63,543 bases of DNA, taken from NCBI GenBank assembly GCA_964549485.1, contig CAZJWI010000155.1, forward strand, positions 1 to 63,543, written 5' to 3'. Each line of letters starts with the position of its first letter. Position 1 is the first letter of the stretch. A program made the translations under genes and the position numbers. The stretch comes from an uncultured Flavobacteriaceae bacterium. GTDB lineage: Bacteria; Bacteroidota; Bacteroidia; Flavobacteriales; Flavobacteriaceae. The notes below the pieces were generated by a model, which searched no databases, was not told the origin of the DNA, and saw only the letters and a program-made list of their open reading frames with translations. This document shows positions 234 through 51,454 of this stretch, in pieces.

Positions 234-1169
234 TTAAACGTTCTGTCCCCAATTTGCCAATTCTTCTGCGGTCCAAACATCAGGGAAGAATATCCTGCGC
301 TGATATTTGGGGTGCATGTATTTTGTCCACTCGCTGCCGCCGGTCGCCTCAACTACTTCTTGTCCGTTATTCAGATAATGATTAGCGGTGTAATAGTGCG
401 CCATCACCCATGTAACATTGACGGTGTAGTCATAATGTCTCATAGCAGCACGCAAATCAGCATCTTTTTGAACCGATTGAGGCAGGCTCTTGAATTTGGC
501 GTACAAATTTATGGTATTATATTCTTTTGTAAAGGCGATAAATTCGTTTTTATACTTTTCTTCAAACGCTTTTAACAAATACGACTTTTTGCCCGTGTTG
601 TAATCTTTGCCCGCGGCTTGCCAATACAAATGCTCAAGGGCGTGTTCATAGGGAGTGTTTCTGTCTATGCTTTCGCGAAAGCGCGCATCGATCAAATTGA
701 TCAAATCGGTACTGGCAAACTCAATCTTGCGATATTGTGCACTTTGGAACCCACTTGCCGGAGTTAGGGTTTTTCTGAATTTCATGTATTGATCGAGATC
801 CATCCCGTCCTTCATAATTGAAAACGAACTCGTAAGCATATCAAAATACCTACTAATACGACCCAATCTACTGCTAAAGAAGCTAGCGGTTAATTGAGGG
901 TGGTGACACACTTGTTCTATCTCCCATAAGACGAGTTTAAAATAGAGTTCGGTGATTTGATGATACATAATAAATACATTCTCATCTGGAAAACTCGTTC
1001 TTGGATTTTGAAGACTGAGTAAGGTATCGGTGTGTACATAGTCCCAATAAGTAATGGGTTTACTTTGTAAAAGCCCTTCGAGATGATCGTCCAGGTCCTG
1101 ATCTATCTTTTCATATTTATCATCAAGTGCTGCGATGATTTTTTGAATATCTGGTTCTATTTTTCTCAT
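234..1169 (-). CDS. kynA: Tryptophan 2,3-dioxygenase
   Basis: YWDY..LL.LQ, FIMYHQITELYFK, PASGFQSAQYRKIE, TGGS motifs. Confidence 0.93.
   Translation of the reverse strand: MRKIEPDIQKIIAALDDKYEKIDQDLDDHLEGLLQSKPITYWDYVHTDTLLSLQNPRTSFPDENVFIMYHQITELYFKLVLWEIEQVCHHPQLTASFFSSRLGRISRYFDMLTSSFSIMKDGMDLDQYMKFRKTLTPASGFQSAQYRKIEFASTDLINLIDARFRESIDRNTPYEHALEHLYWQAAGKDYNTGKKSYLLKAFEEKYKNEFIAFTKEYNTINLYAKFKSLPQSVQKDADLRAAMRHYDYTVNVTWVMAHYYTANHYLNNGQEVVEATGGSEWTKYMHPKYQRRIFFPDVWTAEELANWGQNV
669..682. repeat. Dispersed palindrome GCTTTCGCGAAAGC, perfect copy in kynA (reads RFRES)
   Basis: Read directly in sequence. Confidence 0.95.
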
Positions 1170-1218
1170 GTTTGGTTGTTCTTTAGCGCCTTGGCTGTAG
1201 CGATTCTATATATCATCC

Positions 1219-2043
1219 TCACTTATCAACGAGAATTTTAAACGAATGTTTTAATCCTTTAAAGGCATCTAGATCTACTTTTAATGAGCCTACAGCAAGA
1301 CTTGCCTTTATACGTATAGGTGCCTTGTTGGCATCATCACTAATCCATACGGTAAGGCTTTCCTGTTCTTTAAACACCCTTCCCGACTCGACCATAGGCC
1401 GAAACTTTAAACACCTTATCTTTCCGAATTTGGTTTTTATGACCTCTTTGCCCAAATATCGCAATTTAAAAGGATAATTTTCTGAATCAAAAAACATGGT
1501 AAGCCCCGTCTCATCTCCGGGAGACAAATTACTGGTATCCAGATTATTTCTCAGATAATAAAAGGCAGAAACCATATCCTGAACACCTTGAGCGGTGGCA
1601 ACCGTTTTGCGTTTGTTGTGTTTACGATTAAAAATATGCGCCTTTTGATTTTTTTGATCAAAGTCTATTATCTTGTCTTTGGTATGCCCCCCTTCATTGA
1701 TTTTCCTAACAAATTTGTAAGGCAAATCGGTATACTTGTCGATATAACTTTCGTAATAATCTTCTACTTTGAAGAAAAAGCGTGAAATCCCTGTCGTTTC
1801 TCCAAAGCCTTTGACGTGATACACTTCTTTCTGTTTATAGGTTTTTTGCTCTACCTTTAAGGTGGCATAACCTGCGGTAACCAGCCCGTAATGAACTCTA
1901 AATTTAAACCACTCACCATCGGTATAGGCTTGGGTTTGAGTTTGTGCTATCAAGGCACTACTGCCCATTAAAAACACGCCACATATCATTAAGCAGCGAT
2001 AGGCATTGAGCAATGGTATTTTAAGGGTGTTAATATGATGCAT
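1219..2043 (-). CDS. DUF3108 family exported protein
   Basis: Signal peptide; GEWFKFRVHYGLVTAG, D.VSAFYYLR, VWISDD.NK.P motifs; start uncertain. Confidence 0.8.
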   Translation of the reverse strand: MHHINTLKIPLLNAYRCLMICGVFLMGSSALIAQTQTQAYTDGEWFKFRVHYGLVTAGYATLKVEQKTYKQKEVYHVKGFGETTGISRFFFKVEDYYESYIDKYTDLPYKFVRKINEGGHTKDKIIDFDQKNQKAHIFNRKHNKRKTVATAQGVQDMVSAFYYLRNNLDTSNLSPGDETGLTMFFDSENYPFKLRYLGKEVIKTKFGKIRCLKFRPMVESGRVFKEQESLTVWISDDANKAPIRIKASLAVGSLKVDLDAFKGLKHSFKILVDK

Positions 2044-2161
2044 TTTGGGGTTTCATTTTGATTGATATCCAATCAAATACAATAGTTATTCCAAAAATAG
2101 GAATACTAAAAAACTTCGCCTTAGTTAAGACGAAGTTTTTAGAATTATATTGCCCCGAGAC

Positions 2162-3298: not shown

Positions 3299-3303
3299 AA
3301 TAT

Positions 3304-3813: not shown

Positions 3814-3840
3814 TAATCAGTTTTAGTGTTTATTTTTAGG

Positions 3841-5780: not shown

Positions 5781-8516
5781 TTAGCCTTTGATCAACAATT
5801 TAAAAGTTTGGCTGCGATCTGCCACCCGCACCCATACAATATAGACACCTGTACCTAAATTTGGGACAGGTATTATCTCATCAGCATGCACACCATCATT
5901 ATCTTGATAGATCAACTTGCCGTGAAGATCATAGAGCGCTAATTGGTCGACCTGTTCGGACAAGCTAAATTGATTGGTTGCCGGATTGGGGTAGCTAAAA
6001 ATAGATGCTTTCGCGAAAGCGTTAACACTAAGTGGATTTTCCAAAGGCTCACTAGTGTATAATTTATAGGATCCTGCTGGCATGGCTATGGATTGATTGG
6101 TGCTGGTAACGGTAATTTCTTCTCCCGTAAAAAAATCAAACCAACTTCCCGTTTCTGAAAAATCAGGATCCATATTGGCCGCAGCCATGCCAAAATTGGT
6201 AAGTACCACTACATCTACCTCTGGACTATAGAGATGAATTGTCTTTTCGGGTGTGTCAAGATCCATTTCATTATCCAAAGAATTAAACACCGCATACTCC
6301 TGTTTTAAGGCGATCATTGTTGCGGTGATATCGTAGAGCTGCTCTCGCGCTGTTTGGCTATCATACCCGATGCTCCAGGGTATTGGCTTTCTTCCAGTAC
6401 GACCGTTTTCATCTATAGAAATATCATAGCCCAACTCGCCAAATTGCCATAGCATTTTAGGTCCAGGAACGCTGTAAAACAATACGGTGGCAGCTGCAGT
6501 TCTGTCCAAAGCCGTCTCCAACTCCTGAGTGTTATAACTGCCCTGTATATTCCCAAATTCTTGATTTTTGAACATCAATCGTTCTTCATCATGACTTTCC
6601 ATATAGGCAATCAGATGGGGATCGTTGTACATACGTGTGGCGTGATAGGTATGTGATACATCGTTATTTTGTAGATACCCCATCGTATTTTGATTGTATT
6701 CATCAGTCATTTTACCCCAGATTAAAAAACCGAAATCTGCCAGGACCTTTTCCTCATCATTATCAGACAAATGCTCTAATATCATATACAGATCATTATC
6801 GGTAGCGTTCCAGGTAGCATTGGCATAATCAATCAAAATATCAACTCTGCTTTGATCATACATATTCCAGGCTGGAAGATCTCCCAGGGTATTGTTTTGA
6901 GTAAAACCCTTAGAGAGATCAAATCTAAACCCATCAACTCTGAATTCTTCTACCCAGTATTGAAGGGTTTGTTTGACAAAGGCTTTTGTATATGGGCTCT
7001 CGTGATTAAAATCATAACCCACATTAAAATCGTGTGTAGGTGTTACATTAAGATAGGGATTCTCTGGTGCAGGTCTGAAATTTGCCGCATCCCACCATAG
7101 CTGACAAAGCGAACTCTGGCTAAACGCATGATTAAATACCACATCTAATATCACAGCTATCCCGCGCTGGTGACAGGCATCTACCAATTCTTTAAATTTG
7201 TTTTTGGTCCCATACATCTTGTCCAAAGCATGATGAAAGGAAACATTATACCCCCAACTATCGTTTCCTTCAAATTCAGATAAGGGCATAAACTCGATCG
7301 CATTGATCCCTAAACCTTCTAGATAATCCAGCCTATCGATCACTTGCTGAAAACTGTCTTCTTCAGAAAAGTCCCTCACTAACAATTCATAGATTACCAA
7401 ATTGGTCTGATCGGGTTTGACAAAATTGTCAACCTGCCAATCATACAACTCGGGCTTAATTTCAAGAACAGACACAATTCCGAAAGCATTTTCAGGATAA
7501 GGTTTTAGATTGGGATAATTAGCCGGATCGATCTCGCCATCATGCATAGGATCTAAAACTTTTTCGGCATAGGGATCTGCTACGTAAATCTCAAAATCGG
7601 CTACGTACTGATAGCCATATTCCTGACTCAGGTTAAGATTGATCAAGTCCTGATCCAACACCAACCAGAAATCATCGCCGTCTTTGTTCATTTGATAGCT
7701 TTCGCTAAAGCGCCATTGATTAAAATCTCCTATCAGCATCATATCTGATTTATCAGGAGCGGTGACCAATAGCGTGATTGTTCCATCTGCATTTCTATTT
7801 ATTCCATTGCGCAATCCTGAGGGTTGGGTCACTATTGGAGTGGCAATAGGCACATAAATACTTATGGTATCACTACTAACAACCACATCATTTATAGATG
7901 CTTCTACCAAGAGCGTATAACTACCGGTATTTGCTAAGGTGTATGGAGCAGTAAAGTTTGTGGCATTGTCCTGTGTGGCAACACTTACCCCGTCTACAAA
8001 TAGCTCAAAATCGACATCCTGTGTCGCATTGGCCTCAATAGTGATAGCCTCCCCCTGAGTAAAGACATCGTTTTGTGAGGGGGAGGTAATGACAACGGTT
8101 GCCGTTGTGTTTTCATATAAATTGACAAATATATCAGGAGAGGTTTGTAAAGTAGCATCTGCCGATCTAAATACAAAACTAAGTTGAGTTACCGTATCTG
8201 AAGTGGGCACTCCATAATAGGTAAACACATCAGGGCTAATATCCAGAGCGTATAAATTAGACCCCAATGAAGTCATAGCTGGTTGTACACTATTGTCTCC
8301 CCAGGTTCCAATGATATATTGCCAAGGCGTGCCGTTTGCAGTAACCCCAGTATGGGCATAAATAATGCCCGAATAGCCTTCGAGCGGTGTACCCGTAACA
8401 TCAAGAATGACTTCTATGGGAGCAGTAGCTTCAGGTAAGATAGGGTCTGTAACAACTTGCGCTTGTATGAAAGGTATCCATACAAGCGCAAGAGTAAAAA
8501 GTAAGAATCGTTTCAA
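5781..8516 (-). CDS. Secreted GH13 alpha-amylase family protein with T9SS C-terminal domain
   Basis: Signal peptide; IYELLVRDF, SWGY, DVVFNH, GFRFD, ILEH, SHDEER; C-terminal YPNP...GVY...KLLIK. Confidence 0.92.
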   Translation of the reverse strand: MKRFLLFTLALVWIPFIQAQVVTDPILPEATAPIEVILDVTGTPLEGYSGIIYAHTGVTANGTPWQYIIGTWGDNSVQPAMTSLGSNLYALDISPDVFTYYGVPTSDTVTQLSFVFRSADATLQTSPDIFVNLYENTTATVVITSPSQNDVFTQGEAITIEANATQDVDFELFVDGVSVATQDNATNFTAPYTLANTGSYTLLVEASINDVVVSSDTISIYVPIATPIVTQPSGLRNGINRNADGTITLLVTAPDKSDMMLIGDFNQWRFSESYQMNKDGDDFWLVLDQDLINLNLSQEYGYQYVADFEIYVADPYAEKVLDPMHDGEIDPANYPNLKPYPENAFGIVSVLEIKPELYDWQVDNFVKPDQTNLVIYELLVRDFSEEDSFQQVIDRLDYLEGLGINAIEFMPLSEFEGNDSWGYNVSFHHALDKMYGTKNKFKELVDACHQRGIAVILDVVFNHAFSQSSLCQLWWDAANFRPAPENPYLNVTPTHDFNVGYDFNHESPYTKAFVKQTLQYWVEEFRVDGFRFDLSKGFTQNNTLGDLPAWNMYDQSRVDILIDYANATWNATDNDLYMILEHLSDNDEEKVLADFGFLIWGKMTDEYNQNTMGYLQNNDVSHTYHATRMYNDPHLIAYMESHDEERLMFKNQEFGNIQGSYNTQELETALDRTAAATVLFYSVPGPKMLWQFGELGYDISIDENGRTGRKPIPWSIGYDSQTAREQLYDITATMIALKQEYAVFNSLDNEMDLDTPEKTIHLYSPEVDVVVLTNFGMAAANMDPDFSETGSWFDFFTGEEITVTSTNQSIAMPAGSYKLYTSEPLENPLSVNAFAKASIFSYPNPATNQFSLSEQVDQLALYDLHGKLIYQDNDGVHADEIIPVPNLGTGVYIVWVRVADRSQTFKLLIKG
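6007..6020. repeat. Palindrome GCTTTCGCGAAAGC, perfect copy in amylase gene (AFAKA)
   Basis: Read directly. Confidence 0.95.
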
Positions 8517-9904: not shown

Positions 9905-9924
9905 GATTTCGCGTAAGCAAAAGT

Positions 9925-11325: not shown

Positions 11326-11949
11326 GTGCCTCTTTACAAAACAATAACAGTCTCACCTACTACTAAGGTTTACATTTGGAAAATTACCGAAGATTTGGCT
11401 ACGCTTTCGCGAAATATCTCTCTGACCCATCACTGTCAAAAACGGGTAGATAGCATGAAATCGCAATTGCATCAACGCGGGTTTATGAGCGTGAGACATT
11501 TGCTGGCCAAGGCCGGCTACACCGATCACGATTTGTATTACGACTCTTGGGGCAAACCGCATCTGCATGACGGCAAACAAATTTCTATCACTCATAGCTT
11601 TACCTTTTCGGCCATTATTGTAAGTGATAATCCTGTGGGTATAGATATAGAGATGCAACGCGATAAAATTATTCGCATCGCTCATAAATTCACCCCTTTT
11701 GAGGAATACCGTACCCTGGCAAATGCAGATGCACTGGTACGCAAACTCACTATTGTCTGGGGCGGAAAAGAATCGATGTATAAGTCATTTGCTCAAGAAG
11801 GACTGAGTTTTTTAAAACATATGTACATCGAAGATTTTCAATTTGAAGATGCCCAGACAACAGGTTCGGTCTCTTTTGATGGAAGTTCAAAAGTATACCA
11901 ACTCGATTTTTTAGAATTTGAAGGTTTCACCTGTGTTTATGCCACTTAA
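11326..11949 (+). CDS. 4'-phosphopantetheinyl transferase superfamily protein
   Basis: GKP, ISITHS, VGIDIE, W..KE..YK motifs. Confidence 0.88.
   Translation: MPLYKTITVSPTTKVYIWKITEDLATLSRNISLTHHCQKRVDSMKSQLHQRGFMSVRHLLAKAGYTDHDLYYDSWGKPHLHDGKQISITHSFTFSAIIVSDNPVGIDIEMQRDKIIRIAHKFTPFEEYRTLANADALVRKLTIVWGGKESMYKSFAQEGLSFLKHMYIEDFQFEDAQTTGSVSFDGSSKVYQLDFLEFEGFTCVYAT
11403..11414. repeat. Palindrome core GCTTTCGCGAAA (LSRN)
   Basis: 12 of 14 bases match. Confidence 0.85.
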
Positions 11950-14595: not shown

Positions 14596-15116
14596 GAATT
14601 TGTCTTTTTGGCCCTGAGAGTAGTGGTAAGAGTACGCTTTCGCGAAAGCTATCTCAGCATTACAACGCGGCTTTGGTGCCTGAGTTTGCACGCGATTACC
14701 TCCAAGACCTTTGGGACAAAAAGCAACAAATTTGTCGCCCTAAAGATCTACTACCCATTGCTGCAGGACAAATGGCATTAGAAAATCAGGCTGTAAGCCA
14801 AGGAGCTTCTTTAATCATTTGCGATACCGATTTACTCACGACCAAAGTTTATAGTGAAGCCTATTACAACCACTGGTGTCCCAAGCTATTAGAGACCTAT
14901 GCGCTAGAGAACACCTATGATTTGTATCTACTCACTTATATAGACACCCCCTGGGAAGCCGATGATCTTAGAGACAAACCTGATTCTCGTGAAGAAATGT
15001 TTACGTATTTTAGACAGGCTTTAGCACAATACAAACGTCCTTTTGTCTTTGTACACGGAAGTATTGAAGAGCGATTGCAGACGGCCACTAAGGCCATAAA
15101 TACCCTACTCATTTGA
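14556..15116 (+). CDS. NadR-type kinase/AAA_28 P-loop protein
   Basis: GPESSGKSTL, PEFARDY, DTD, W..D..R; GTG start at 14556 overlapping pnuC. Confidence 0.85.
   Translation: MEKALKQHPGNCIRICLFGPESSGKSTLSRKLSQHYNAALVPEFARDYLQDLWDKKQQICRPKDLLPIAAGQMALENQAVSQGASLIICDTDLLTTKVYSEAYYNHWCPKLLETYALENTYDLYLLTYIDTPWEADDLRDKPDSREEMFTYFRQALAQYKRPFVFVHGSIEERLQTATKAINTLLI
14636..14649. repeat. Palindrome GCTTTCGCGAAAGC, perfect copy right after the Walker A codons (LSRKL)
   Basis: Read directly. Confidence 0.95.
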
Positions 15117-17397: not shown

Positions 17398-19578
17398 ATG
17401 AAGAAGATTCTTTATGTAGCTATGGGCTTAATAAGCTTTGCTGCACTGGCACAAGAAGGCCAAACGGTCATCGACACCACAAAAACGGAGAAATTAGACG
17501 AAGTCCTGGTGCGCTCGGTACGAGTAAAAGCAGACTCTCCTATTACGCATTCCAATCTGGACAAAGAAGATTTGGAACCGCGCAATTTGGGACAGGATAT
17601 CGCTACTCAACTCAATTTCCTACCCGGGGTAGTAACTACTTCAGATGCCGGGGCGGGTATTGGTTATACTGGTTTTCGCGTACGCGGAACAGGAAATCAA
17701 GGTATTAATGTAACCATAAACGGGATCCCTTATAACGATGCCGAAAGTCTCACTACCTTTTTTGTGAATCTACAAGACTTTACCTCATCGATAGAGAGTC
17801 TTCAATTACAACGTGGTGTGGGCTCGTCTACCAATGGTTCTGGTGCTTTTGGAGCTAGTCTTAACATACTTACAGATGCTGTATCTAATGAGGCCTATGG
17901 AGAGATCACAAATTCTTTTGGTTCTTTTAATACGCGTCGTGCAACGGTCAAATTTAGTACGGGCCTACTCAATGATCATTTAGAATTATCTGGGCGTTTG
18001 TCTTCTATCAAGTCTGATGGCTATATCGACAGAGCTTCTTCAGATCTTAAATCTTATTTTTTACAAGCTGCATACAAAGACGATAATACCTTGGTAAAAC
18101 TGATCAATTTTGCCGGTTCAGAAGTCACCTATCAATCCTGGTTTGGCGTAGATGCAGAAACGGTCCAAAATGATCCTACCTTTAACCCTGCCGGATTATT
18201 TACAGACGATGATGGCAATATACGTTTTCATGACAATCAGGTTGACGATTACAAACAAGATCACTACCAATTACACTGGAACCAACGCTACGACAACAAC
18301 TGGAGTTCTAATGTAAGCCTAAATTACACCTACGGTCGTGGCTTCTTTGAAGAATATAAAGAAGACCAAGATTTTGAAACCTATGGTTTTACTCCCATAG
18401 CGATAGGGGGCGAAGTCATTAACACTACCGATCTTATAAGACGTCGCTGGCTCGATAATGATTTTTATGTAGCCAATGCCAGTGTGCATTACAAAGACAA
18501 TAGTCTAGATGTAATTTCTGGAGCACTTTATAGCACTTATACAGGAGACCATTTTGGTGAAGTGATCTGGGCTCAAAACGCGGGAGGGAGTCAAATTAGA
18601 GATCGTTACTACGACGGTGATGCGACAAAGAATGAATTTTCAGCTTTCGCGAAAGCCACCTGGCGTATCAATGATACCTGGAGTGTCTACGGTGACTTGC
18701 AGGGGCGTTTTATCGATTACACCACGGGAGGTATAAATTCTGATTTGCTCAATTTTGTTATTGATGAAACCTACAGCTTTTTTAATCCAAAGGCAGGAAT
18801 AACCTATCAACCCAATAAAACGCATCAATTTTATGCCTCTTATGCCAGAGCCAATAGAGAGCCCAACCGTACCGACTTTGAAAATGGCGACCCAAAACCA
18901 GAGCGTCTTAATGATCTTGAATTAGGCTGGCGCTTTGCCACTCCGGGTATTGCATTAAACGTCAATGGATATTATATGGGATATCGGGATCAATTGGTTC
19001 TCACCGGAGCCATTGATGATGTTGGGGCTCCCATCCGCGCCAACAGCGGAAAGAGTTTTAGAGCGGGAATTGAGATTGACGCAGCGGTCAAAATTACAGA
19101 CAAGTTAACTACCCAACCTAATATTGCATTGAGCACCAACAAGAACCAAGACTTTTTCTTTCAGAGAGATGGGGTACTTGTCAATTTGGGCAATACCAAT
19201 ATTTCCTATTCGCCAGAGGTAGTATTTGGTAATATTCTGGAGTTTACCGCCGCAGAAGGCTTACAATTGCGCCTATTATCAAAATATGTAGGAGAACAAT
19301 ACATGGGTAACATTGATAGTGAAGCCTCCATTTTGGATTCCTTTTTTATCAACGATTTTAATATATCCTATGAATTAAAAGAATTTTTTATATTTAAATC
19401 TGTCGTAATCAATGGTTTAGTCAATAATATTTTTGATAAAAAGTATGTATCTAACGGTTACTTCTTTACCTTTGATGATGATTTTTCGGATCCAAATCAA
19501 GTAACTACCGTTGAAGGTGCTGGTTTTTATCCGCAAGCTGGTATCAACTTCTTATTGGGAGCGACATTAAAATTCTAA
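17398..19578 (+). CDS. TonB-dependent receptor, probable thiamine uptake
   Basis: Signal peptide, LDEV, plug SDAGAGIGYTG.RVRG, C-terminal Phe; TPP riboswitch upstream. Confidence 0.92.
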   Translation: MKKILYVAMGLISFAALAQEGQTVIDTTKTEKLDEVLVRSVRVKADSPITHSNLDKEDLEPRNLGQDIATQLNFLPGVVTTSDAGAGIGYTGFRVRGTGNQGINVTINGIPYNDAESLTTFFVNLQDFTSSIESLQLQRGVGSSTNGSGAFGASLNILTDAVSNEAYGEITNSFGSFNTRRATVKFSTGLLNDHLELSGRLSSIKSDGYIDRASSDLKSYFLQAAYKDDNTLVKLINFAGSEVTYQSWFGVDAETVQNDPTFNPAGLFTDDDGNIRFHDNQVDDYKQDHYQLHWNQRYDNNWSSNVSLNYTYGRGFFEEYKEDQDFETYGFTPIAIGGEVINTTDLIRRRWLDNDFYVANASVHYKDNSLDVISGALYSTYTGDHFGEVIWAQNAGGSQIRDRYYDGDATKNEFSAFAKATWRINDTWSVYGDLQGRFIDYTTGGINSDLLNFVIDETYSFFNPKAGITYQPNKTHQFYASYARANREPNRTDFENGDPKPERLNDLELGWRFATPGIALNVNGYYMGYRDQLVLTGAIDDVGAPIRANSGKSFRAGIEIDAAVKITDKLTTQPNIALSTNKNQDFFFQRDGVLVNLGNTNISYSPEVVFGNILEFTAAEGLQLRLLSKYVGEQYMGNIDSEASILDSFFINDFNISYELKEFFIFKSVVINGLVNNIFDKKYVSNGYFFTFDDDFSDPNQVTTVEGAGFYPQAGINFLLGATLKF
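18643..18656. repeat. Palindrome GCTTTCGCGAAAGC, perfect copy in TonB receptor gene (AFAKA)
   Basis: Read directly. Confidence 0.95.
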
Positions 19579-26326: not shown

Positions 26327-26983
26327 ATGTTTGAACTGCCAGATAAACATCAAGGGGCTGAAGAACCCTGGTTTCCAGATCCTCAATACGCCGATGAAGA
26401 AGGGTTGCTATCAATAGGGGGAAGTCTTGCGCCCAATTGGTTATTACATGCCTATAATCGCGGTATTTTTCCTTGGTATAGCGAAGGGCAACCCATTTTG
26501 TGGTGGTCTCCAGATCCTCGCATGGTGGTTACTCCAGAACAAGTTCACGTGTCAAAATCGATGAAGAGGTTTATGGTTAAAACGCATTTACGGGTTACCT
26601 TCAATCAAGATTTTTCTGGGGTTATTGCCCATTGTCAAAAATCACCCAGACCTCATCAAGAAGGTACATGGATTACAGAGGCCATCAAAAGCGCTTATAC
26701 TGAGTTACATCAAATGGGCAGGGCTGTATCGGTAGAGGTATGGGATAAGCAACAACTTGTAGGCGGACTCTACGGTGTAGATCTTAAAGCTAAAGGGGTC
26801 TTTTGTGGTGAGAGTATGTTTTCAAAACATTCCAATGCCAGTAAGCTCGCTTTTATTGCACTTTCGCGAAAGCTTAGCCAGGAGAAATATCGTTTGATTG
26901 ATTGTCAAATGCATACTCCACACCTAGAGAGCCTTGGCGCATACGAAATTTCCAGATCCAAATTTTTGACCTATTTGCAGTGA
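26327..26983 (+). CDS. aat: Leucyl/phenylalanyl-tRNA--protein transferase
   Basis: AY..GIFPW, WWSPDPR, TWI, GGLYG, FCGESMF, DCQ..T.HL. Confidence 0.95.
   Translation: MFELPDKHQGAEEPWFPDPQYADEEGLLSIGGSLAPNWLLHAYNRGIFPWYSEGQPILWWSPDPRMVVTPEQVHVSKSMKRFMVKTHLRVTFNQDFSGVIAHCQKSPRPHQEGTWITEAIKSAYTELHQMGRAVSVEVWDKQQLVGGLYGVDLKAKGVFCGESMFSKHSNASKLAFIALSRKLSQEKYRLIDCQMHTPHLESLGAYEISRSKFLTYLQ
26860..26873. repeat. Palindrome variant ACTTTCGCGAAAGC (LSRKL)
   Basis: 13 of 14 bases match. Confidence 0.9.
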
Positions 26984-29024: not shown

Positions 29025-29732
29025 TTAATTCTTGTCTTTGGAGGTTGTAAAACCCGCTTCAAAGTCAGAAATGCTTTGCGCATTATCTACGTCAAAATCA
29101 CCTATTTTGGTTCTTCGCAAAGCGGTGAGATGAGCACCACTTCCCAGGCCCTGTCCAAAATCATGAGCTAAGGATCGGATATAAGTACCCTTACTACAGC
29201 TCACTTTAAAATCGACTTCAGGAAGCTCAATTCTCGTGATTTCAAAACTGTGGATTTCGGTTTCTCGCAAAGGAATATTAACGGCCTCACCCGCTCTGGC
29301 ATATTCGTATAAGCGCTTACCATCCTTTTTTAATGCCGAAAATACAGGTGGGCGTTGCTGTATAATACCTGTATTCGCTTTCGCGAAAGCGTGTATAGCC
29401 TCATTGGTAATATGCGCAATAGGAAATTCCTGATTGACCTCAGTCTCCAAATCGTAAGAAGGCGTGGTAGCTCCCAGAAAAAAAGTGCCCGTATACGTCT
29501 TGGCCTGACCCATAAATTCGTTAATGCGTTTGGTAAACTTTCCCGTACAAATAATCATAAGACCACTAGCCAAAGGATCTAAAGTTCCTGCATGACCCAC
29601 CTTGATTTTTTTGATCTCGAGATTTTTTCGAATTAACCAGCGCACCTTGTTCACCAGCTGAAAAGAACTCCACTCTAGAGGTTTGTCAAATAGTAGCACC
29701 TGGCCATCTTTATAATCCTGAGCCTCTAACAT
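29025..29732 (-). CDS. truB: tRNA pseudouridine(55) synthase
   Basis: KVGHAGTLDPLASG, PP.FSA, CSKGTYIRSL. Confidence 0.96.
   Translation of the reverse strand: MLEAQDYKDGQVLLFDKPLEWSSFQLVNKVRWLIRKNLEIKKIKVGHAGTLDPLASGLMIICTGKFTKRINEFMGQAKTYTGTFFLGATTPSYDLETEVNQEFPIAHITNEAIHAFAKANTGIIQQRPPVFSALKKDGKRLYEYARAGEAVNIPLRETEIHSFEITRIELPEVDFKVSCSKGTYIRSLAHDFGQGLGSGAHLTALRRTKIGDFDVDNAQSISDFEAGFTTSKDKN
29376..29391. repeat. Extended 16-bp palindrome CGCTTTCGCGAAAGCG in truB (AFAKA)
   Basis: Read directly. Confidence 0.95.
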
Positions 29733-32334: not shown

Positions 32335-35205
32335 ATGAAATATCATTTCAACGAAATTGAAGCCAAATGGCAGAAATATTGGTCAGAAAACGGCACTTTT
32401 GAAGCAGCAAACCAAAGCGATAAACCCAAATTTTATGTACTCGACATGTTTCCCTATCCTTCGGGGGCCGGACTGCATGTAGGGCATCCACTAGGTTATA
32501 TTGCCAGTGATATTTATGCGCGTTTTAAACGTCATCAAGGATTTAATGTTCTTCACCCACAAGGCTACGATTCTTTTGGGCTGCCGGCAGAGCAGTACGC
32601 CATTCAAACTGGGCAACACCCGGCCATCACCACCAGAGATAATATTGCCAGATATCGCAAACAGCTCGATGCCATTGGGTTCTCTTTTGATTGGAGTCGT
32701 GAGGTGCGTACCTCAGATCCAAATTATTACAAATGGACGCAGTGGATATTTACTGAGCTATTTCATTCGTGGTATAACTTCACCACCAATAAGGCAGAGT
32801 CAATAGAAAGTCTGGTTAGCGCTTTCGCGAAAGCGGGGAATAGCAATATTAATGCCGCCTGTGACGATGATACCCCTTTATTTACAGCAGAGCAGTGGGC
32901 TGGTTTTGACAGCAAACAACAGCAAGAAATCTTACTCAAATACCGCTTGACCTTTCTCGCAGAAACCGAAGTAAATTGGTGTCCAGCCTTAGGAACTGTA
33001 TTGGCCAATGATGAGATCATCAATGGCGTTTCTGAACGTGGTGGACACCCTGTGATTCGTAAGAAAATGACCCAATGGTCGATGCGTATCTCGGCCTATG
33101 CCGAACGCTTGTTGCAAGGTCTGGAAAAGATTGATTGGAGCGAATCGATTAAGGAGACACAGCGCAATTGGATTGGAAAATCTGTGGGTGCGACTGTAAG
33201 TTTTAATTTACAGGATCACGATGCGCATATCGATGTTTTTACTACTCGACCTGATACCATTTTTGGGGTGAGCTTTATGACGCTAGCACCAGAGCATGAA
33301 TTGGTAGAACGCATTACCACTCCAGAACAAAAGCAAGCCGTACAAGATTATATACAGGCCACAGCCAAGCGCTCAGAACGCGAACGCATGGCCGATGTAA
33401 AGTCTATTAGTGGGGTGTTTACAGGAGCTTATGCCCTGCACCCATTTAGTCAAGAGCCCATCCCAATCTGGATAGGTGATTATGTTCTGGCAGGGTATGG
33501 AACTGAAGCCGTTATGGCCGTGCCTTGTGGCGACCAGAGAGATTATGATTTTGCCAAACATTTTGACCTACCTATACCCAATGTTTTTCAAGGGGTTGAT
33601 ATTTCAGAACAAGCTTATGCAGACAAAGCGGGTACAATTATCGCTAATTCAGACTTTCTAAATGGTTTGCCGTATAAAAAGGCCGTAAAACTTGCGATTT
33701 TTGAACTTGAGAAGATAGGAGCTGGAAGAGGCAAAACCAATTACCGCTTGCGTGATGCAGTTTTTAGCAGGCAACGTTATTGGGGAGAGCCTTTCCCTGT
33801 GTACTTTAAGGATGGCATACCCGAAATGATTGCTCAAGAGCACTTGCCTATCACGCTTCCTGAGGTTGAAAAATACCTGCCTACAGAAGAAGGTGAGCCT
33901 CCTCTGGGACGCGCCGAAAACTGGGCATGGGACAGCACTAAAAATAAAGTGGTTTCTAATGGTTTGATAGATCATAAAACCGTATTTCCGCTAGAGCTCA
34001 ACACTATGCCAGGTTGGGCAGGTAGTAGTTGGTATTTTTTCAGATATATGGAAAAAGCTAAGCGCGATACGATTTTTGCATCCGAAGAGGCACTTGATTA
34101 TTGGAAAAATGTCGATTTATACATTGGAGGATCGGAACACGCAACAGGTCATTTGCTCTATGCCCGCTTTTGGGTAAAGTTTTTATACGATCGCGGTCTT
34201 GTGCCTGTTGATGAGCCCTTCCAAAAAATGATCAATCAAGGGATGATCTTGGGAGAAAGTGCCATCATCTATCGCAAGAATGATAGCAATACTTATATCT
34301 CACATGGCATCTTAAAAGACAATGATGATTATCAGCCTATTCGCGTTGATGTCTCTATGGTCAATACTTCCAATGAGTTAGATATTCAAAAATGTATGGC
34401 ATGGCGTCAAGAGTTTAAAGACGCTCAATTTGTTTTAGAAAACCACGAAATATACGATCCCAATAATGACGCTCACGGTCAAGCCGAAGCTGTGTTTAAG
34501 GTGAATCGCGAGGTAGAAAAAATGTCAAAGTCTAAATTTAATGTGGTCAATCCCGATGACATATGTTCCCAGTATGGAGCAGATACTTTGCGAATGTATG
34601 AGATGTTTTTGGGCCCGTTAGAGCAATCTAAACCCTGGAATACGGCAGGAATTACCGGGGTGCACAACTTCTTGAAGAAGTTTTGGAAGCTCTTTCACTC
34701 TGGTGATAACAATAGCTTTGAAGTAAGTGATGCCCAGCCTACAAAAGACAACCTTAAGACGTTGCACAAAACGATTAAAAAAGTACAGGACGATATCGAA
34801 TCCTTTAGTTTTAATACCTCGGTGTCTACTTTTATGATTGCTACTAACGAGCTTGCAGCTCAAAAGTGTCAATCGCGAGCCATTTTAGAGCCGCTTGCGG
34901 TATTGATTTCGCCATATGCGCCTCATATCGCTGAAGAATTATGGGCCAAACTAGGGCATTCTCAATCTATTGCCAATGAGGCTTTCCCTCTCTTTGATGA
35001 CAAACACTTGATTGAGAGCACTAAGAATTATCCCATTTCATTTAATGGTAAAATGAAATTTACCTTAGAATTGCCTTTGGATATGAGTAAAGATGAAATT
35101 GAACAAGTTGTCATGGCTCATGAAAAAACAAAAATGTATCTCAATGGCCGCACACCCAAGAAGGTAATTATTGTTCCAGGGAAAATTGTAAACCTGGTAG
35201 GTTAA
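32335..35205 (+). CDS. leuS: Leucine--tRNA ligase
   Basis: MFPYPSGAGLHVGH, FTTRPDT, SRQRYWG, KMSKS. Confidence 0.98.
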   Translation: MKYHFNEIEAKWQKYWSENGTFEAANQSDKPKFYVLDMFPYPSGAGLHVGHPLGYIASDIYARFKRHQGFNVLHPQGYDSFGLPAEQYAIQTGQHPAITTRDNIARYRKQLDAIGFSFDWSREVRTSDPNYYKWTQWIFTELFHSWYNFTTNKAESIESLVSAFAKAGNSNINAACDDDTPLFTAEQWAGFDSKQQQEILLKYRLTFLAETEVNWCPALGTVLANDEIINGVSERGGHPVIRKKMTQWSMRISAYAERLLQGLEKIDWSESIKETQRNWIGKSVGATVSFNLQDHDAHIDVFTTRPDTIFGVSFMTLAPEHELVERITTPEQKQAVQDYIQATAKRSERERMADVKSISGVFTGAYALHPFSQEPIPIWIGDYVLAGYGTEAVMAVPCGDQRDYDFAKHFDLPIPNVFQGVDISEQAYADKAGTIIANSDFLNGLPYKKAVKLAIFELEKIGAGRGKTNYRLRDAVFSRQRYWGEPFPVYFKDGIPEMIAQEHLPITLPEVEKYLPTEEGEPPLGRAENWAWDSTKNKVVSNGLIDHKTVFPLELNTMPGWAGSSWYFFRYMEKAKRDTIFASEEALDYWKNVDLYIGGSEHATGHLLYARFWVKFLYDRGLVPVDEPFQKMINQGMILGESAIIYRKNDSNTYISHGILKDNDDYQPIRVDVSMVNTSNELDIQKCMAWRQEFKDAQFVLENHEIYDPNNDAHGQAEAVFKVNREVEKMSKSKFNVVNPDDICSQYGADTLRMYEMFLGPLEQSKPWNTAGITGVHNFLKKFWKLFHSGDNNSFEVSDAQPTKDNLKTLHKTIKKVQDDIESFSFNTSVSTFMIATNELAAQKCQSRAILEPLAVLISPYAPHIAEELWAKLGHSQSIANEAFPLFDDKHLIESTKNYPISFNGKMKFTLELPLDMSKDEIEQVVMAHEKTKMYLNGRTPKKVIIVPGKIVNLVG
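32820..32835. repeat. Extended 16-bp palindrome CGCTTTCGCGAAAGCG in leuS (AFAKA)
   Basis: Read directly. Confidence 0.95.
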
Positions 35206-36353: not shown

Positions 36354-36377
36354 AGTTTGCTTTCGCGAAAGCAAACT
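36354..36377. repeat. 24-bp perfect intergenic palindrome AGTTTGCTTTCGCGAAAGCAAACT
   Basis: Read directly; contains the 14-mer at 36359-36372. Confidence 0.95.
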
Positions 36378-37963: not shown

Positions 37964-38914
37964 ATGGATATTCAACAAGAATTAAATAAGAGCTCAGGCT
38001 TTGGAAATCTAGAATTACTAGCACGTCAGGTGGTAGAGGGCTTTATTTCTGGGATGCACAAAAGTCCCTTTCATGGGTTTTCTGCAGAATTTGCAGAGCA
38101 CAAAGTGTACAATACGGGAGAGAGCACCAAGCATATCGATTGGAAGCTCTACGCCAAAACGGATAGGCTGTATACCAAACGTTATGAAGAGGAAACCAAT
38201 CTGCGTTGTCACCTCATTCTCGACAATAGTAGCTCGATGCATTATCCCGAGGTCAAAGCGTATAATATCTCCAACCTAAATAAAATCAGTTTTGCAGCTC
38301 TCGCCAGTGCCGCCATTATGAATTTGATGAAAAAGCAGCGCGATGCGGTTGGAATGAGTATATACAGTGATACTTATGAATATTATGTAGGTGAAAAGGG
38401 CAGCGATAGACACCACCATATGCTTTTAGATACCCTTAATGGGTTGTTAGATCCAGCTTTCGCGAAAGCAAATAGCCAAGCGGCGGCTCGTCAAACAGAC
38501 ACCTATAAACACCTGCATCTGATAGCCGAAAAATTAAAGCGACGTTCGTTGGTATTTCTTTTTTCGGATATGTTTCAAAGTGATGTTGAACAAGAAGCCC
38601 TATTTGAAGCCTTGCAACATTTAAAATATAATAAACACGAGGTGATTCTCTTTCACACTTATAGCAAGACCAAAGAATATAACTTTGACTTTTCTAATAC
38701 ACCTAAAAAATACGTCGATGTAGAGACTGGAGCACAGGTCAACCTCTACGCCGATTCAATAAGGGATATTTACACTTCGGCGGTTCAAACCTACTTTAAA
38801 AACCTGCAACTCAAGTGTGCACAATACCGCATAAAGTATATCCCAGCCGAAATTGAAAAGGGCTTCCACCCTATCTTGACAACATTTCTAGTAGAACGTC
38901 AAAAATTTGTGTAA
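37964..38914 (+). CDS. DUF58 domain protein
   Basis: G.H.SPFHG.S.EF.EH, IDWK.YAKTD, D.S.SM, SD. Confidence 0.92.
   Translation: MDIQQELNKSSGFGNLELLARQVVEGFISGMHKSPFHGFSAEFAEHKVYNTGESTKHIDWKLYAKTDRLYTKRYEEETNLRCHLILDNSSSMHYPEVKAYNISNLNKISFAALASAAIMNLMKKQRDAVGMSIYSDTYEYYVGEKGSDRHHHMLLDTLNGLLDPAFAKANSQAAARQTDTYKHLHLIAEKLKRRSLVFLFSDMFQSDVEQEALFEALQHLKYNKHEVILFHTYSKTKEYNFDFSNTPKKYVDVETGAQVNLYADSIRDIYTSAVQTYFKNLQLKCAQYRIKYIPAEIEKGFHPILTTFLVERQKFV
38456..38469. repeat. Palindrome GCTTTCGCGAAAGC, perfect copy in DUF58 gene (AFAKA)
   Basis: Read directly. Confidence 0.95.
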
Positions 38915-39812: not shown

Positions 39813-41144
39813 ATGATGGTTTTTCAGTCAAATCGCTTTACTTACAGGATACTATTGCTCACTATATTGTGCTTAAGTTCCTTTTCATGGGTAGCCTCTT
39901 CACAAACACTTTCTACAACAGAAAAAGAACTACTCCAGACTGTAGGTAACAATAATGCAGATGCTATAGCCTTCTTAGAAAAGGTAGTTAATATCAATAG
40001 TGGTACGCTAAATGTAAAAGGGGTTAAGACAGTGGGCGATGCGTTTTCTTCGGCTTTTGAAAATATAGGATTTGAAACATCATGGATTGAAATGCCTTCA
40101 GAAATGCAAAGAGCAGGACATCTCTTTGCACGAACACGTGGCGATAAAGGCAAAAGGCTTTTACTTATTGGACACCTAGACACCGTCTTTGAGGCAGATA
40201 GCGAGTTTCAAACCTTTGAAATGATTAATGATTCTATCGCTAAAGGTCCAGGCGCCAATGATATGAAAGGTGGCAATGTAGTAGTCCTTTATGCGTTAAA
40301 AGCATTGCGCGAAAATGGTTTACTAAAGGATGCTCAAATCACCGTAGCCTTCACTGGTGATGAAGAAAGCACAGGAAAACCAATCGCTATAAGTAGAAAG
40401 GATTTGATAGATGCAGCCAAAAGCTCTGATATAGCTCTAGGTTTTGAGACATCTACAGGCTTTGATAATGCTACCGTAGCTCGTAGAGGTTCTAGTAATT
40501 GGAATGTTACTGTAACTGGCAAAAGAGCGCACTCATCTGGTATATTTCGCGAAAGCGTAGGTGCTGGGGCTAATTTTGAAATGGCACGTATCCTTCATCA
40601 ATTCTACAACGAAGTGCGAGGAGACGAATTACTTAGTTTTAATCCTGGTATGCTACTAGGAGGTACTACTATGGATCTTGAGGCCGCCCAAAGCAAAGGA
40701 AGTATTTTTGGCAAAGGCAATGTTGTTGCTCAAACCGCCTATGTCCAAGGAGGGCTTCGGTTTATTTCAGAAGAACAAAAAGAAAGAGCTCGAGCAAAAA
40801 TGCGTACTATAGTAGCAAACAACTTACCGCAAACCTCGGCCAAAATTGCTTTTCAGGACAGTTATCCAGCTATGAAACCCACCCCCGAAAATTACGCCTT
40901 GTTAGAAGTACTTTCTAAAGTGAGCCAGGATTTGGGGCAACCCGAAGTAGTGGCCTATGACCCAGGCAAACGCGGCGCCGCCGATGTATCTTTCGTAGCC
41001 GAATATGTAGCTTGTCTCGATGGTCTTGGAACTATGGGTACTGGAGCGCACACGCCTAAGGAAACGGTAAACATTAATACAATAGAAATGTTAACAAAGC
41101 GTACGGCGGTCCTTATTTATCGCCTATTGCAAATGGAGCGTTAG
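39813..41144 (+). CDS. Exported M20 metallopeptidase (glutamate carboxypeptidase-like)
   Basis: GHLDTVF, GPG..DMKGG, GDEE, G..AH, DGLG..G.GAH. Confidence 0.9.
   Translation: MMVFQSNRFTYRILLLTILCLSSFSWVASSQTLSTTEKELLQTVGNNNADAIAFLEKVVNINSGTLNVKGVKTVGDAFSSAFENIGFETSWIEMPSEMQRAGHLFARTRGDKGKRLLLIGHLDTVFEADSEFQTFEMINDSIAKGPGANDMKGGNVVVLYALKALRENGLLKDAQITVAFTGDEESTGKPIAISRKDLIDAAKSSDIALGFETSTGFDNATVARRGSSNWNVTVTGKRAHSSGIFRESVGAGANFEMARILHQFYNEVRGDELLSFNPGMLLGGTTMDLEAAQSKGSIFGKGNVVAQTAYVQGGLRFISEEQKERARAKMRTIVANNLPQTSAKIAFQDSYPAMKPTPENYALLEVLSKVSQDLGQPEVVAYDPGKRGAADVSFVAEYVACLDGLGTMGTGAHTPKETVNINTIEMLTKRTAVLIYRLLQMER
40545..40556. repeat. Palindrome core TTTCGCGAAAGC (FRES)
   Basis: 12 of 14 bases match. 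Confidence 0.85.
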
Positions 41145-41539: not shown

Positions 41540-41675
41540 AATTTAAAGATACAATGCAGTCAAAAAATCAGCAGAATACAGACCTGTAAAATTTTCCCAA
41601 ATTCTCAATTGGGGCAAATGGCTGGTATTCAGTTTTGGCGAAAGCCCTATCTTTAAAATGCTAAAAACCAAACAT

Positions 41676-46132: not shown

Positions 46133-46160
46133 TTTTGTATCTTTAAGCAAAATTGATCTC

Positions 46161-46670: not shown

Positions 46671-46817
46671 ATCTAGATTTCACTATTCATAGCAGTCAGG
46701 ACCCAGAGCTAAGAAATCTGCAATTTTCTAAGCCTAATCGTACACTTTTCTCAACTTTTTTGCGCATCTATTACTTCATGTCTTATATTTGCCTTTCTAT
46801 TTTATAAATCCTACACT

Positions 46818-49316: not shown

Positions 49317-49322
49317 TTAAAT

Positions 49323-49349
49323 AAAAGCCTTCTCACGAAGGCTTTTTTT
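49323..49349 (+). terminator. Intrinsic terminator
   Basis: AAAAGCCTTC-tcac-GAAGGCTTTTTTT. Confidence 0.85.
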
Positions 49350-49399
49350 ATTTTCTTTGAGTAGTAAAATACTACCGATGGTGCCCTGATCTCGTTGCT

Positions 49400-51454
49400 A
49401 TGCGATTATTATATCTTATCTGCCTCACTGCCGTTCTGAGTTTCCTTTCAAGTTGTGATCAACCCAGCCCTTCCAGAGCTGCACATTGGGACCAGGTAAG
49501 CGTGCACTACTCACATATGGATACAACTATCCGGCCAGGTAGCGACTTTTACAGATATACAAATGGCGGTTGGAACGAGCATACACAAATTCCGAATGAC
49601 CTTCCCGAATATAACACCTTCTACTATCTACAAAACAAGGTGTTTAACGATTTGCTTATCACCTTAGATCAGCTGCCTTCATTAGAAGAGGAGGCTTTTA
49701 CTGACGGTCCTTCACAAGTTGCTCTTCTTTACAGGCAGTATTTGGATACGCTTTCGCGAAATAATACCGGGATCACTCCAATCCTTTCGGTACTAAAAAA
49801 CATCAAAAAAACACAGTCCAAAGCGGCATTATTAGAATTGATAAGCACAGATACTCAAGTGAGTGCTCCATTTTTTACTATCGAAATTGGTGCTGATCTT
49901 ATAAATAGTACCCAGTCTATGGTTTACTTAGGTCCTCATACATTAGGGCTTGGACATAGAAAGAATTATTTCTCATCATCCTTAAGAGCTCAGGCTTTAC
50001 GCGAGAACTACAAAAAATACATCGGTTCCGTAATGGCCGAGGTAGATGTTGATAGTCAAAATGCTGATGATGTGGCCCAAAGCATTTTAGAACTTGAGCA
50101 GCTTTTGGCCAAAGCCCAAGCCCCACCAGAACTACTCCAGCAACCAGAGCTACTCAATAATCGGTATGCTGTTAATGATGCCAACGAGACTTTTCCAAGA
50201 CTTGCTCCAAAAAATCGACTAGATAATTGGGGTATACCCTCTCATATAGACACCCTCATTATTACCCAACCTCATTATTTTAATAAACTAGAAGTACTAC
50301 TTGATTCCCTACCCCTCTCCCAATTAAAACAACTTACTGTTTTTCATACCGTCAATTCCTCTAGTCAAATAATGAGTGGGTCCTTAGAAAAAAAGCATTG
50401 GCTATTTTACAAATCGTATGCACAAGGGGCTCGGGTCCAACAACCAGCCCCTAAAAGGGCTTTACAAATGGTGAATAAGCTTCTTCCAGAAGCCTTAGGG
50501 TTGTTGTATGCTAAGCGCTATGGTAATGAGCAAACCAATGCCCGTATTTCGCAAATGATCACCTATATCATCGCTGCTTATAAAAAGCGAATCCAAGCCT
50601 TGACATGGATGGCTCCTGGCACCAAAAACAAGGCCATACAGAAACTTGACAGTATGGATATTAGGGTGGGATATCCAACTAGCTGGGATGTGTTTCATAA
50701 CCTTGAACTCACTCCAGATAACAGCTATTACCAAAATCAAATAGTGCTTCGTCAATGGTCGAGAAAGCAAAGTATTTCACTATTAAATCAAAACCTTACA
50801 AATAAGTCTTGGCGCTTATTTCCGCACCAAGTAAATGCTCAATATTTTCCAGACACTAACCAAATCATTATTCCCGCCGCGCTATTACAACCTCCTTTGT
50901 ATGATGCACAGGGTGATATGGCCTCTAATTTTGGGTCAATAGGTGCAATCATTGGTCATGAGATCACTCATGCCTTTGATAGGATTGGTGCCCGCTACGA
51001 TGTCCAGGGCAATCTAAACCCTTGGTGGACCACTAGCGATGATACCCAATTCAATATGTTAACCCAAGCCCTTGATCATCAGTATAAGGCTATAGAATTA
51101 AAGGATTCATTGGTTGTTAATGCTGCGCTTACGCGAAATGAAAATATTGCAGATCTTGGCGGTATAGCAACAGCCTTTGATGCGCTTCAAAATTGGATAG
51201 CCGATTACGGATTGACAAATAAGACTGATGATTTTACCCCTAATCAGCGTTTTTTTATGGCCTGGACATCCACATGGCGCAGCAAACAACGCAGAAAAGC
51301 ATTTGAAGAGCAACTAAAAGTTGATACGCATCTACCCGGTCCTATTCGTGCGGTACAGCCTTTACGACAATTCTCAACATTTTATGAGGCCTTCGATATA
51401 GGCCCTAGTGACCCAGAATACCTCCCTATTCGGGCACGTATTCCAATTTGGTAA
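49400..51454 (+). CDS. M13 (neprilysin/PepO-like) metallopeptidase, lipoprotein
   Basis: Lipobox LSSC, DFY.Y.NG.W, VNA.Y, GHEITH, ENIADLGG. Confidence 0.92.
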   Translation: MRLLYLICLTAVLSFLSSCDQPSPSRAAHWDQVSVHYSHMDTTIRPGSDFYRYTNGGWNEHTQIPNDLPEYNTFYYLQNKVFNDLLITLDQLPSLEEEAFTDGPSQVALLYRQYLDTLSRNNTGITPILSVLKNIKKTQSKAALLELISTDTQVSAPFFTIEIGADLINSTQSMVYLGPHTLGLGHRKNYFSSSLRAQALRENYKKYIGSVMAEVDVDSQNADDVAQSILELEQLLAKAQAPPELLQQPELLNNRYAVNDANETFPRLAPKNRLDNWGIPSHIDTLIITQPHYFNKLEVLLDSLPLSQLKQLTVFHTVNSSSQIMSGSLEKKHWLFYKSYAQGARVQQPAPKRALQMVNKLLPEALGLLYAKRYGNEQTNARISQMITYIIAAYKKRIQALTWMAPGTKNKAIQKLDSMDIRVGYPTSWDVFHNLELTPDNSYYQNQIVLRQWSRKQSISLLNQNLTNKSWRLFPHQVNAQYFPDTNQIIIPAALLQPPLYDAQGDMASNFGSIGAIIGHEITHAFDRIGARYDVQGNLNPWWTTSDDTQFNMLTQALDHQYKAIELKDSLVVNAALTRNENIADLGGIATAFDALQNWIADYGLTNKTDDFTPNQRFFMAWTSTWRSKQRRKAFEEQLKVDTHLPGPIRAVQPLRQFSTFYEAFDIGPSDPEYLPIRARIPIW
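49750..49761. repeat. Palindrome core GCTTTCGCGAAA (LSRN)
   Basis: 12 of 14 bases match. Confidence 0.85.

Follow-up and report, generated by a model that had tools for sequence, protein, structure and literature searches.

The Palindrome in the Window

The 63,543 nucleotides at positions 1 to 63,543 of contig CAZJWI010000155.1 of an uncultured Flavobacteriaceae bacterium (assembly GCA_964549485.1), called the window below, contain a short palindrome that recurs in genes of unrelated function. As judged from its LeuS, which is 92% identical to a Dokdonia record and lies nearest to the Dokdonia rows in a tree, the organism is a Dokdonia. Perfect 14-base copies of the palindrome start at 669, 6007, 14636, 18643, 29377, 32821, 36359, and 38456, and its 10-base core occurs 13 times where 0.08 occurrences are expected, with at most one in any of 100 dinucleotide shuffles. 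When up to two mismatches are allowed, there are 17 matches against 0.18 expected. Twelve of the 13 sites fall inside open reading frames (ORFs) whose Pfam families are functionally unrelated, LeuS and TruB among them, and the site at 36359 is intergenic. The reading frames of the 12 intragenic sites are split 5/5/2 (10 sites were translated directly and two frames were derived from ORF starts). The original prediction, made from the sequence alone, had reported the eight perfect copies and 13 cores, about 0.07 cores expected by chance, and 12 sites in unrelated coding sequences including leuS and truB in all three frames; all of its coordinates are correct, and the shuffles, ORFs, and Pfam matches agree with the remainder.

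The working unit is not the palindrome but an oriented element on one strand. It consists of a weakly patterned, G/T-rich leader of 20 bases, three T, and a 3-pair stem closed by C-G around a four-base loop, in which the first base is G, the last two are A, and the second is free. The palindrome, 14–16 bases long, is an overlap that places this element on both strands, since the complement of the loop provides the T-run of the other strand. The site at 669..682, in a tryptophan 2,3-dioxygenase ORF (234–1169, minus strand), illustrates the arrangement: the plus-strand element has its T-run at 671–673, stem at 674–676, loop at 677–680, and returning stem at 681–683, and the minus-strand element is its mirror, shifted by 3 bases.

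The other two-strand sites are at 6007..6020 in a secreted alpha-amylase ORF (5781–8516, minus strand), 14636..14649 in an ORF with an AAA_28 domain (14391–15116), 18643..18656 in a TonB-dependent receptor ORF, 38456..38469 in a DUF58 ORF, and 36359..36372 upstream of thioredoxin. The two-strand site at 29377..29390 lies in truB, where it substitutes residues that are present in non-carrier relatives, and that at 32821..32834 lies in leuS, where the core is retained in five Dokdonia-type loci. At five cores one side only is intact. The hairpin element is on the minus strand alone at 11403..11416 (phosphopantetheinyl transferase ORF, 11326–11949). The cores at 25001..25014 (short-chain fatty acid transporter ORF) and 49750..49763 (peptidase M13 ORF) are also assigned to the minus strand, and those at 40543..40556 (peptidase M20 ORF) and 26860..26873 to the plus strand. 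The last of these lies in a leucyl/phenylalanyl-tRNA protein transferase ORF; at the identical codons, a loop variant on one strand is present in a relative (L153).

Three further one-strand elements were not part of the original prediction. The element at 41634..41646 (plus strand) has its outer stem pair swapped on both sides, a compensated change, and is predicted to form a 3-pair hairpin at 41637–41646. The second loop base is changed in the elements at 9907..9919 (plus strand) and 51126..51138 (minus strand); the latter, beyond the span previously described, also has a predicted 3-pair hairpin. The 12.4 kb of ordinary genes from 51139 to 63543 contain no element as defined here.

Genome-Wide Abundance and Origin of the Sites

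The window's own genome (G000; 3.21 Mb in 289 contigs, 91% complete), to which the counts below refer unless another genome is named, holds 442 perfect copies and 566 cores, where an order-5 Markov model predicts 0.72 perfect copies. Coding DNA alone has 354 perfect copies, far above the mean of 1.05 and maximum of 3 in 20 synonymous shuffles that preserve the proteins. The main frame encodes a five-residue peptide that is found 243 times (1.4 expected); a cause at the level of the peptide is rejected, as the synonymous shuffles yield about one copy. Thus, the genome-wide, frame-independent signal at the level of DNA that the original prediction proposed, together with a count against a codon-aware null as a check, is borne out by both models. 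Intergenic perfect copies amount to 88 of 442, which is an upper bound because the gene caller wrongly placed 11405 and 14638 outside genes.

The palindrome is present in all 33 other Dokdonia genomes, at 70–906 perfect copies each, and 27 genomes from outside the genus contain zero perfect copies. Hundreds of cores are seen in only five of 401 family genomes, namely, G000, G002, two of genus g35, and one of g252. Three genomes from two genera have intermediate core counts (27 in G117, 51 in G381, and 42 in G085), and these are lineages gaining or losing the signal. In an 86-row LeuS tree built by a quick method, the carrier lineages are scattered, with weak backbone support and long branches. 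The complete genome G030 contains 899 copies, and a complete carrier chromosome is covered end to end, with 17, 18, 15, 18, 22, and 10 sites per 500 kb among the 100 places listed of a 123-site subset. Totals are similar, ∼800–900, in well-assembled genomes of ∼3.3 Mb and ∼5.5 Mb. In G000, element density climbs with gene GC, from 1.0 per 10 kb to 2.8. Low-GC islands account for the longest element-free stretch (24 kb) and for several of the other long gaps; ordinary genes are found in some long gaps.

Alignments of orthologues show how the sites arise. There is no indel at the leuS site in 80 of 80 aligned orthologues or at the truB site in 63 of 63, and the rare codons at both sites stay fixed across Dokdonia-type loci; at a site near the end of the aat gene, gaps are present in 32 of 43 alignments. 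The sites arise through substitution within genes, not insertion. We also considered a longer mobile element or an extended inverted repeat as the source, the former of which had been named as the finding that would undo the idea of a signal. Neither holds, as the leuS and truB sites are free of indels and the left and right flanks of a site show no greater complementarity than shuffled pairs do (532 sites).

A Probable Hairpin on One Strand

At least one side of the palindrome is intact in ∼562 of the 566 cores. When the cores are masked, the top over-represented words that remain keep the three T, the 3-pair stem, and the G..AA loop. The genome holds 1170 elements at ∼730 loci, 886 of them in palindromic form and 284 on one strand only, and the four alternatives at the second loop base are found in 666, 33, 26, and 17 copies.

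The stem varies in pairs. At the outer pair, C is the partner in 24 of the 33 cases of a 5′ G and in 24 of the 1005 cases of a 5′ C. At the middle pair, A faces T 13 times (0.05 expected) and the unchanged partner a single time. T faces A five times at the closing pair. Five other genomes from three genera give a similar picture at the middle pair: with the consensus base excluded, 96 of 107 matches, which are not independent because kin genomes have orthologous sites in common, are complementary (71 A-T, 23 C-G, and 2 T-A), and nine are single changes that keep the old partner. As a control, 75 non-carrier leuS loci (1.59 Mb) gave no matches in the middle-pair table and two in the outer-pair table. 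These paired variants alter the central four bases of the palindrome. Complementary double changes around an off-centre loop indicate that the fold is favored, and a dimer bound to half-sites on the duplex would not favor them. We therefore consider it very probable that the element is read as a hairpin on single-stranded DNA.

The fold belongs to a recognizable type. Two G-C pairs closing a G..A loop with a free second base are a feature of a class of extra-stable DNA mini-hairpins, and the element has it. According to the accessible part of the source on this class, such hairpins resist 3′ exonuclease, are bound poorly by single-stranded DNA-binding protein (SSB), and are far less stable as RNA (PMC13037366); the second-loop-base variants tolerated by the element agree with Table 1 of the same source. 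Folding predictions gave the 3-pair hairpin at the three one-strand sites that were folded, with z-scores that are not significant. An RNA tetraloop role is rejected on two counts: the one-strand copies do not favor the mRNA strand (90 sense and 142 template), and a purine change at the third loop base, which is a common variant in RNA, does not occur.

Flanks, Spacing, and Strand Layout

Around perfect sites, a position-specific bias in the flanks extends 21 bases past the core and ends sharply, defining a 52-bp zone. On the 5′ side, the 284 one-strand elements prefer G at positions −20 and −8 and C at −10 and rarely have C at −6, while the 3′ side is A-rich with no mirrored leader pattern; the leader thus belongs to the 5′ side of the element.

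The elements are evenly spaced, with a coefficient of variation of 0.67–0.69 as compared to 0.93–0.94 for random placement. Pairs less than 1 kb apart are depleted among two-strand sites (12 observed, 51.4 expected) and between two-strand and one-strand sites (25 observed, 64.1 expected). Among one-strand elements, same-strand pairs at this distance are seen once against 9.0 expected, and opposite-strand pairs 15 times against 14.6 expected. Spacing therefore acts per strand, with the two strands independent and a median of ∼3.5 kb on each, as seen with small counts in one draft genome and an element list chosen post hoc.

With the replication strand inferred from third-position G/C skew, one-strand elements are distributed 100 versus 102 on the 106 contigs of at least 10 kb and 67 versus 66 on the most skewed contigs. 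A long-range strand sawtooth between sites was not found in this genome; a weak excess of A over T extends to ∼300 bases, with none farther. These values bear on the idea that the element is a priming or restart signal, comparable to the phage G4 origin or plasmid ssiA, which primase or PriA would read on a template that is single-stranded. The primase site of phage G4 has the same mini-hairpin, poorly bound by SSB in the accessible part of its description (PMC13037366), phage records contain the element, and its spacing is per strand, all of which suit such a role. A lagging-strand model, however, predicts a strong replichore bias, most family members do not have abundant copies, and gaps of 11–24 kb are tolerated. 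Lagging-strand priming is rejected because the strands are used equally, and a priming or restart signal in general appears quite unlikely.

The palindromic form invites a different explanation, in which the duplex is bound by a dimeric organizer of the SlmA, Noc, MatP, or ParB type or is a methylation target resembling highly iterated palindrome 1 (HIP1). The share of elements in palindromic form (886 of 1170), the sharp 52-bp flank zone, and the even spacing could all be expected of such a target. Yet half-sites predict neither the complementary double changes around an off-centre loop nor the independence of opposite strands, and the sites are spread along the whole length of a complete chromosome. 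The original prediction noted a likeness to parS, Noc, SlmA, and matS sites. It is not supported, given the paired stem changes, the 284 of 1170 elements that are on one strand only, the spacing per strand, and this chromosome-wide spread, and we judge a duplex reader to be very unlikely.

Matched stem changes would also be yielded by template switching. The words might have no reader and no function and accumulate as short inverted repeats perfected by template switching, or as stable hairpins retained through a repair bias; silent-site G+C, which is slightly higher near elements, is in keeping with this. The fixed T leader and the patterned 20-base flank are unexplained by such a process, however, as are the lack of the equally stable three-base-loop form, the same-strand avoidance, and the fixed rare codons in leuS and truB. 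An origin of this kind without a reader seems to us highly improbable.

Related Words and Phages

The palindrome and its element are accompanied by related words. A second palindrome, of an odd length of 17 bases and centered on a five-base loop, is found at 22 sites in G000 (for example, contig C13 near 14345 and C14 near 2963), and it too gives both strands a T-run and stem. Among 401 genomes, at least eight copies are present only in G000, G002, G071, and G117. In a genome from another genus (G152; loci L148, L149, and L254–L263), there is a different oriented 10-base word with the same T leader and a three-base loop. Its closing bases co-vary: C is found with G 61 times and with A in no case. 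The word has 606 copies in G152 and at least 80 in each of 23 genomes among 301 of the family, as compared to ∼20 for a reversed control, and palindrome carriers have few copies (1–11); it looks like a sister dialect. One record titled Dokdonia sp. (L160) clusters with Psychroserpens in the LeuS tree, does not have the palindrome, and has the three-base-loop word; on these sequence grounds, it is probably mislabelled.

Farther afield, a genome of a different family (G521; L326–L333) has 107 copies of the searched pattern, mostly with other stems and with the leader and loop as in Dokdonia. A genome of the Flavobacteriaceae genus g182 (G599; L334–L338) has the one-strand form at a low level (at most 34). 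In a phylum sample of 401, in which other classes dominate, the four-base-loop word is abundant only in G000, G071, and G521. Phage and provirus records carry the cores as well: G841, G842, G844, and G845 (L319–L325) have 5, 5, 3, and 8 cores in 38, 40, 15.5, and 37 kb, respectively, many of them inside ORFs. These four were selected for multiple matches, and most of the 131 viral loci are single matches. In a fifth such record, L024, one core lies between the terminase and head-tail adaptor genes, with a portal gene nearby.

At three places in G000 (C8 near 180, C126 near 7121, and C60 near 7994), tandem repeats of 46–47 bases begin at a core or a degenerate core. These arrays are rich in small three-base-loop hairpins and are possibly an element like the repetitive extragenic palindromes (REPs) that uses the site as a target.

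A Candidate Tag Read in Transformation

The process behind the element would have to act on single-stranded DNA, make equal use of the two strands, and profit little from a further copy less than 1–2 kb away on the same strand. In combination, these requirements leave transformation or a Chi-like role. We favor the former, tentatively and with a probability of roughly 0.4: the element would be a candidate self tag, by which natural transformation recognizes incoming DNA while that DNA is single-stranded. Once the strand is single inside the cell, the element would fold into the mini-hairpin, and a strand so tagged would be better taken up, or would better survive and recombine. Natural transformation would bring in one or the other strand of fragments a few kb long, such that one tag per strand would suffice; a second tag nearby on the same strand would add little, and one on the opposite strand would count separately. 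A tag on both strands would double the chance that the imported strand is marked, favoring the overlapped palindrome, and selection or molecular drive would then even out the spacing. The reader may be part of the Bacteroidota uptake route, which comprises a TonB-type barrel with a DUF5689 lid, a periplasmic nuclease, and ComEC, or may act just after entry. Uptake sequences of the Neisseriaceae offer a precedent in that, in the part of the source available, they are biased to the core genome and their spacing fits the size of conversion fragments (PMC2397512).

The required machinery appears to be in place. ComEC is present in all five genomes tested, G000 included, and G000 also has a locus of the ddbBCD type (L274; contig C92, 3732–9220) that encodes a nuclease, an outer-membrane barrel, and a DUF5689 protein. 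Accessible portions of two reports on Riemerella state that the counterparts of the barrel and the DUF5689 protein are essential for transformation, which also needs ComEC, DprA, ComF, and RecA (PMC8459023; 10.1101/2025.03.18.642099). A preference of Riemerella for its own DNA has been reported, in a source whose available text names no uptake sequence (PMC7965970). A model of the DUF5689 protein built from an alignment has a predicted local distance difference test (pLDDT) score of 89.8 (36 from the single sequence), and both fold searches with it were filled by its C-terminal carbohydrate-module-like domain. In the barrel tree, all sampled family genomes that are rich in either dialect fall within one 18-row clade, which kinship alone may explain.

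A number of observations weigh against the transformation reading, in addition to the shared orthologous sites among the stem matches and the limits on the per-strand spacing given above. Known uptake sequences are recognized as duplex DNA at the cell surface. For the full palindrome, the folding program, which has no term for the extra stability of mini-hairpins, often favors a long 6-pair hairpin. An equally stable hairpin with a three-base loop is not enriched in G000 (176 copies, 187 expected), and stability alone is therefore not the cause. The model also leaves unexplained why one-strand elements are commoner on the template than on the coding strand. With regard to the reader, a homologue of the DUF5689 protein has been modelled as resembling a domain that binds duplexes non-specifically, in the accessible text of 10.1101/2025.03.18.642099, and F. 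johnsoniae is described, in a source available in part, as a species that could not be transformed in the laboratory. Neither in the barrel tree (43 rows) nor in the tree of the DUF5689 protein (43 rows from a quick search) are the palindrome lineages united in one clade, and the trees give no support to either protein as a reader that tracks the dialect. In a pair of congeneric genomes that share the palindrome, the DUF5689 proteins are 45% identical, as compared to 69% and 84% for their neighbors in the locus, which suggests fast change or exchange. Nor does the presence of DUF5689 explain anything, as it is found in 285 of 301 family genomes and hundreds of cores in five of 401. Among the candidates examined (the barrel, the DUF5689 protein, and the Y1 transposase), no reader was found. 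The Y1 transposase (PF01797), which has a match in three of five genomes, was not found in the complete carriers G030 and G288, and a REP-associated tyrosine transposase (RAYT) of this kind is rejected as the reader on that ground.

The element could instead be a Chi site based on structure. Here, the helicase-nuclease AddAB would unwind DNA from a break, the hairpin on the 3′-ended strand would halt degradation, the G/T-rich strand on the 5′ side of the hairpin would load RecA, and the palindrome would let the site work from both directions. Much of the layout would suit this role. The element is oriented and strand-specific, occurs once per few kb, is sparse in islands, and is present in phage records, and an AddAB-like gene pair is found in all five genomes tested. 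A sharply bounded leader of 20 bases would suit a strand threaded through an enzyme, and resistance of the hairpin to 3′ exonuclease (PMC13037366, in its accessible part) would suit a halt to degradation. Chi sites are species-specific and over-represented, and the strand is fed to the Chi-scanning domains of the enzyme, as given in the available portion of PMC4614115. Three points stand opposed. The first is replication skew: most Chi sites favor one of the replication strands, but the counts here are 100 versus 102. The second is form, since known Chi sites are short unfolded words read within the enzyme, unlike the hairpin element. Finally, AddAB is probably family-wide, whereas the element is abundant in few lineages. 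On balance, a structure-based Chi site seems rather unlikely.

More broadly, we put it at about even odds that a hitherto undescribed class of genome-wide signal is in use among aerobic Bacteroidota and that its readout is a shape of single-stranded DNA, a T-run with a mini-hairpin, instead of a duplex word. Strands would be tagged and spaced independently, lineages would have their own dialects, phages would adopt the tag, and a conserved machine for uptake or end processing would do the reading. The dialects would be the three-base loop, the four-base loop, and the two-strand palindrome of Dokdonia. No description of the palindrome or the hairpin signal was found in the literature searched, subscription papers and bioRxiv supplements being out of reach. 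If such a class exists, the element would be the missing self-DNA signal of transformation in Flavobacteriales or the first structure-based Chi. Genome-wide self signals (uptake sequences, Chi, and HIP1) are known from few lineages and all have been described as plain words, and a single-strand hairpin signal, set per strand and rewriting hundreds of proteins, would add a new means of marking DNA. Such a signal bears on how Flavobacteriales such as Riemerella favor DNA of their own through the unusual TonB-type uptake route, and it may supply a simple tag for better genetic tools in marine Bacteroidota. It also suggests that other unexplained iterated palindromes merit re-examination as overlapped one-strand signals.

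Comparison with Known Systems

The distribution resembles that of HIP1 or of uptake sequences, as the original prediction recognized: hyper-abundant, in all frames, and both inside and between genes. The likeness to the DNA uptake sequence (DUS) of Neisseriaceae and the uptake signal sequence (USS) of Pasteurellaceae extends to strong over-representation, conservation at silent sites, and, in the accessible part of the source, hundreds of exact copies within and between genes on both strands, lineage dialects, and spacing of a few kb (PMC2397512). DUS and USS are also biased to the core genome; for the element, the low-GC islands among the longest gaps, the rise of density with gene GC, and totals that do not scale with genome size point in that direction, and the ordinary genes in some long gaps and the copies in selected phage records point away from it. 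The phylum and sequence are different, and the information here lies partly in hairpin shape, as the paired stem changes indicate, whereas DUS and USS are non-palindromic words read as duplex. Like the Chi sites of RecBCD and AddAB, the element is oriented, single-strand, and lineage-specific, at about one per 4–5 kb, with an AddAB-like pair present. Unlike them, it is longer (13 bases plus leader), structured, mostly on both strands, and without replication-strand skew.

Sites of the parS, Noc, SlmA, and matS type number a few tens and are limited to or excluded from one region of the chromosome. In contrast, there are 899 copies in the complete G030 genome, a 123-site subset spans a complete carrier chromosome, and complementary double changes outnumber single ones, unlike what independent half-sites would give. 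REPs, like the element, combine a hairpin with a short leader at its base, and they are read by RAYT on single-stranded DNA. However, they are inserted, intergenic, and clustered, whereas the Dokdonia elements arise by substitution, are intragenic, and avoid each other, and two complete carriers have no Y1 match. The extra-stable hairpin class is also read single-stranded at the phage G4 origin, RSF1010 ssiA, and the promoter of the N4 virion RNA polymerase (PMC13037366, accessible part), which are single origin or promoter sites, unlike the ∼730 chromosomal, mostly coding loci described here.

The cyanobacterial HIP1 is likewise a hyper-abundant palindrome found in all frames, with conservation at the DNA level and regular spacing; its available description gives it as conserved and periodic, with a proposed role in nucleoid structure and a function that is unsettled (PMC5861425). 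The present element is longer than HIP1 and approximately tenfold sparser, and its palindrome is only the two-strand form of a hairpin unit. The HIP1 octamer itself has 22 copies in the 3.2 Mb of G000, and on the features tested, the element belongs neither to HIP1 nor to the parS, Noc, SlmA, and matS class nor to the REPs. By analogy, its working is closest to that of an uptake sequence or a Chi site, and its distribution to that of HIP1.

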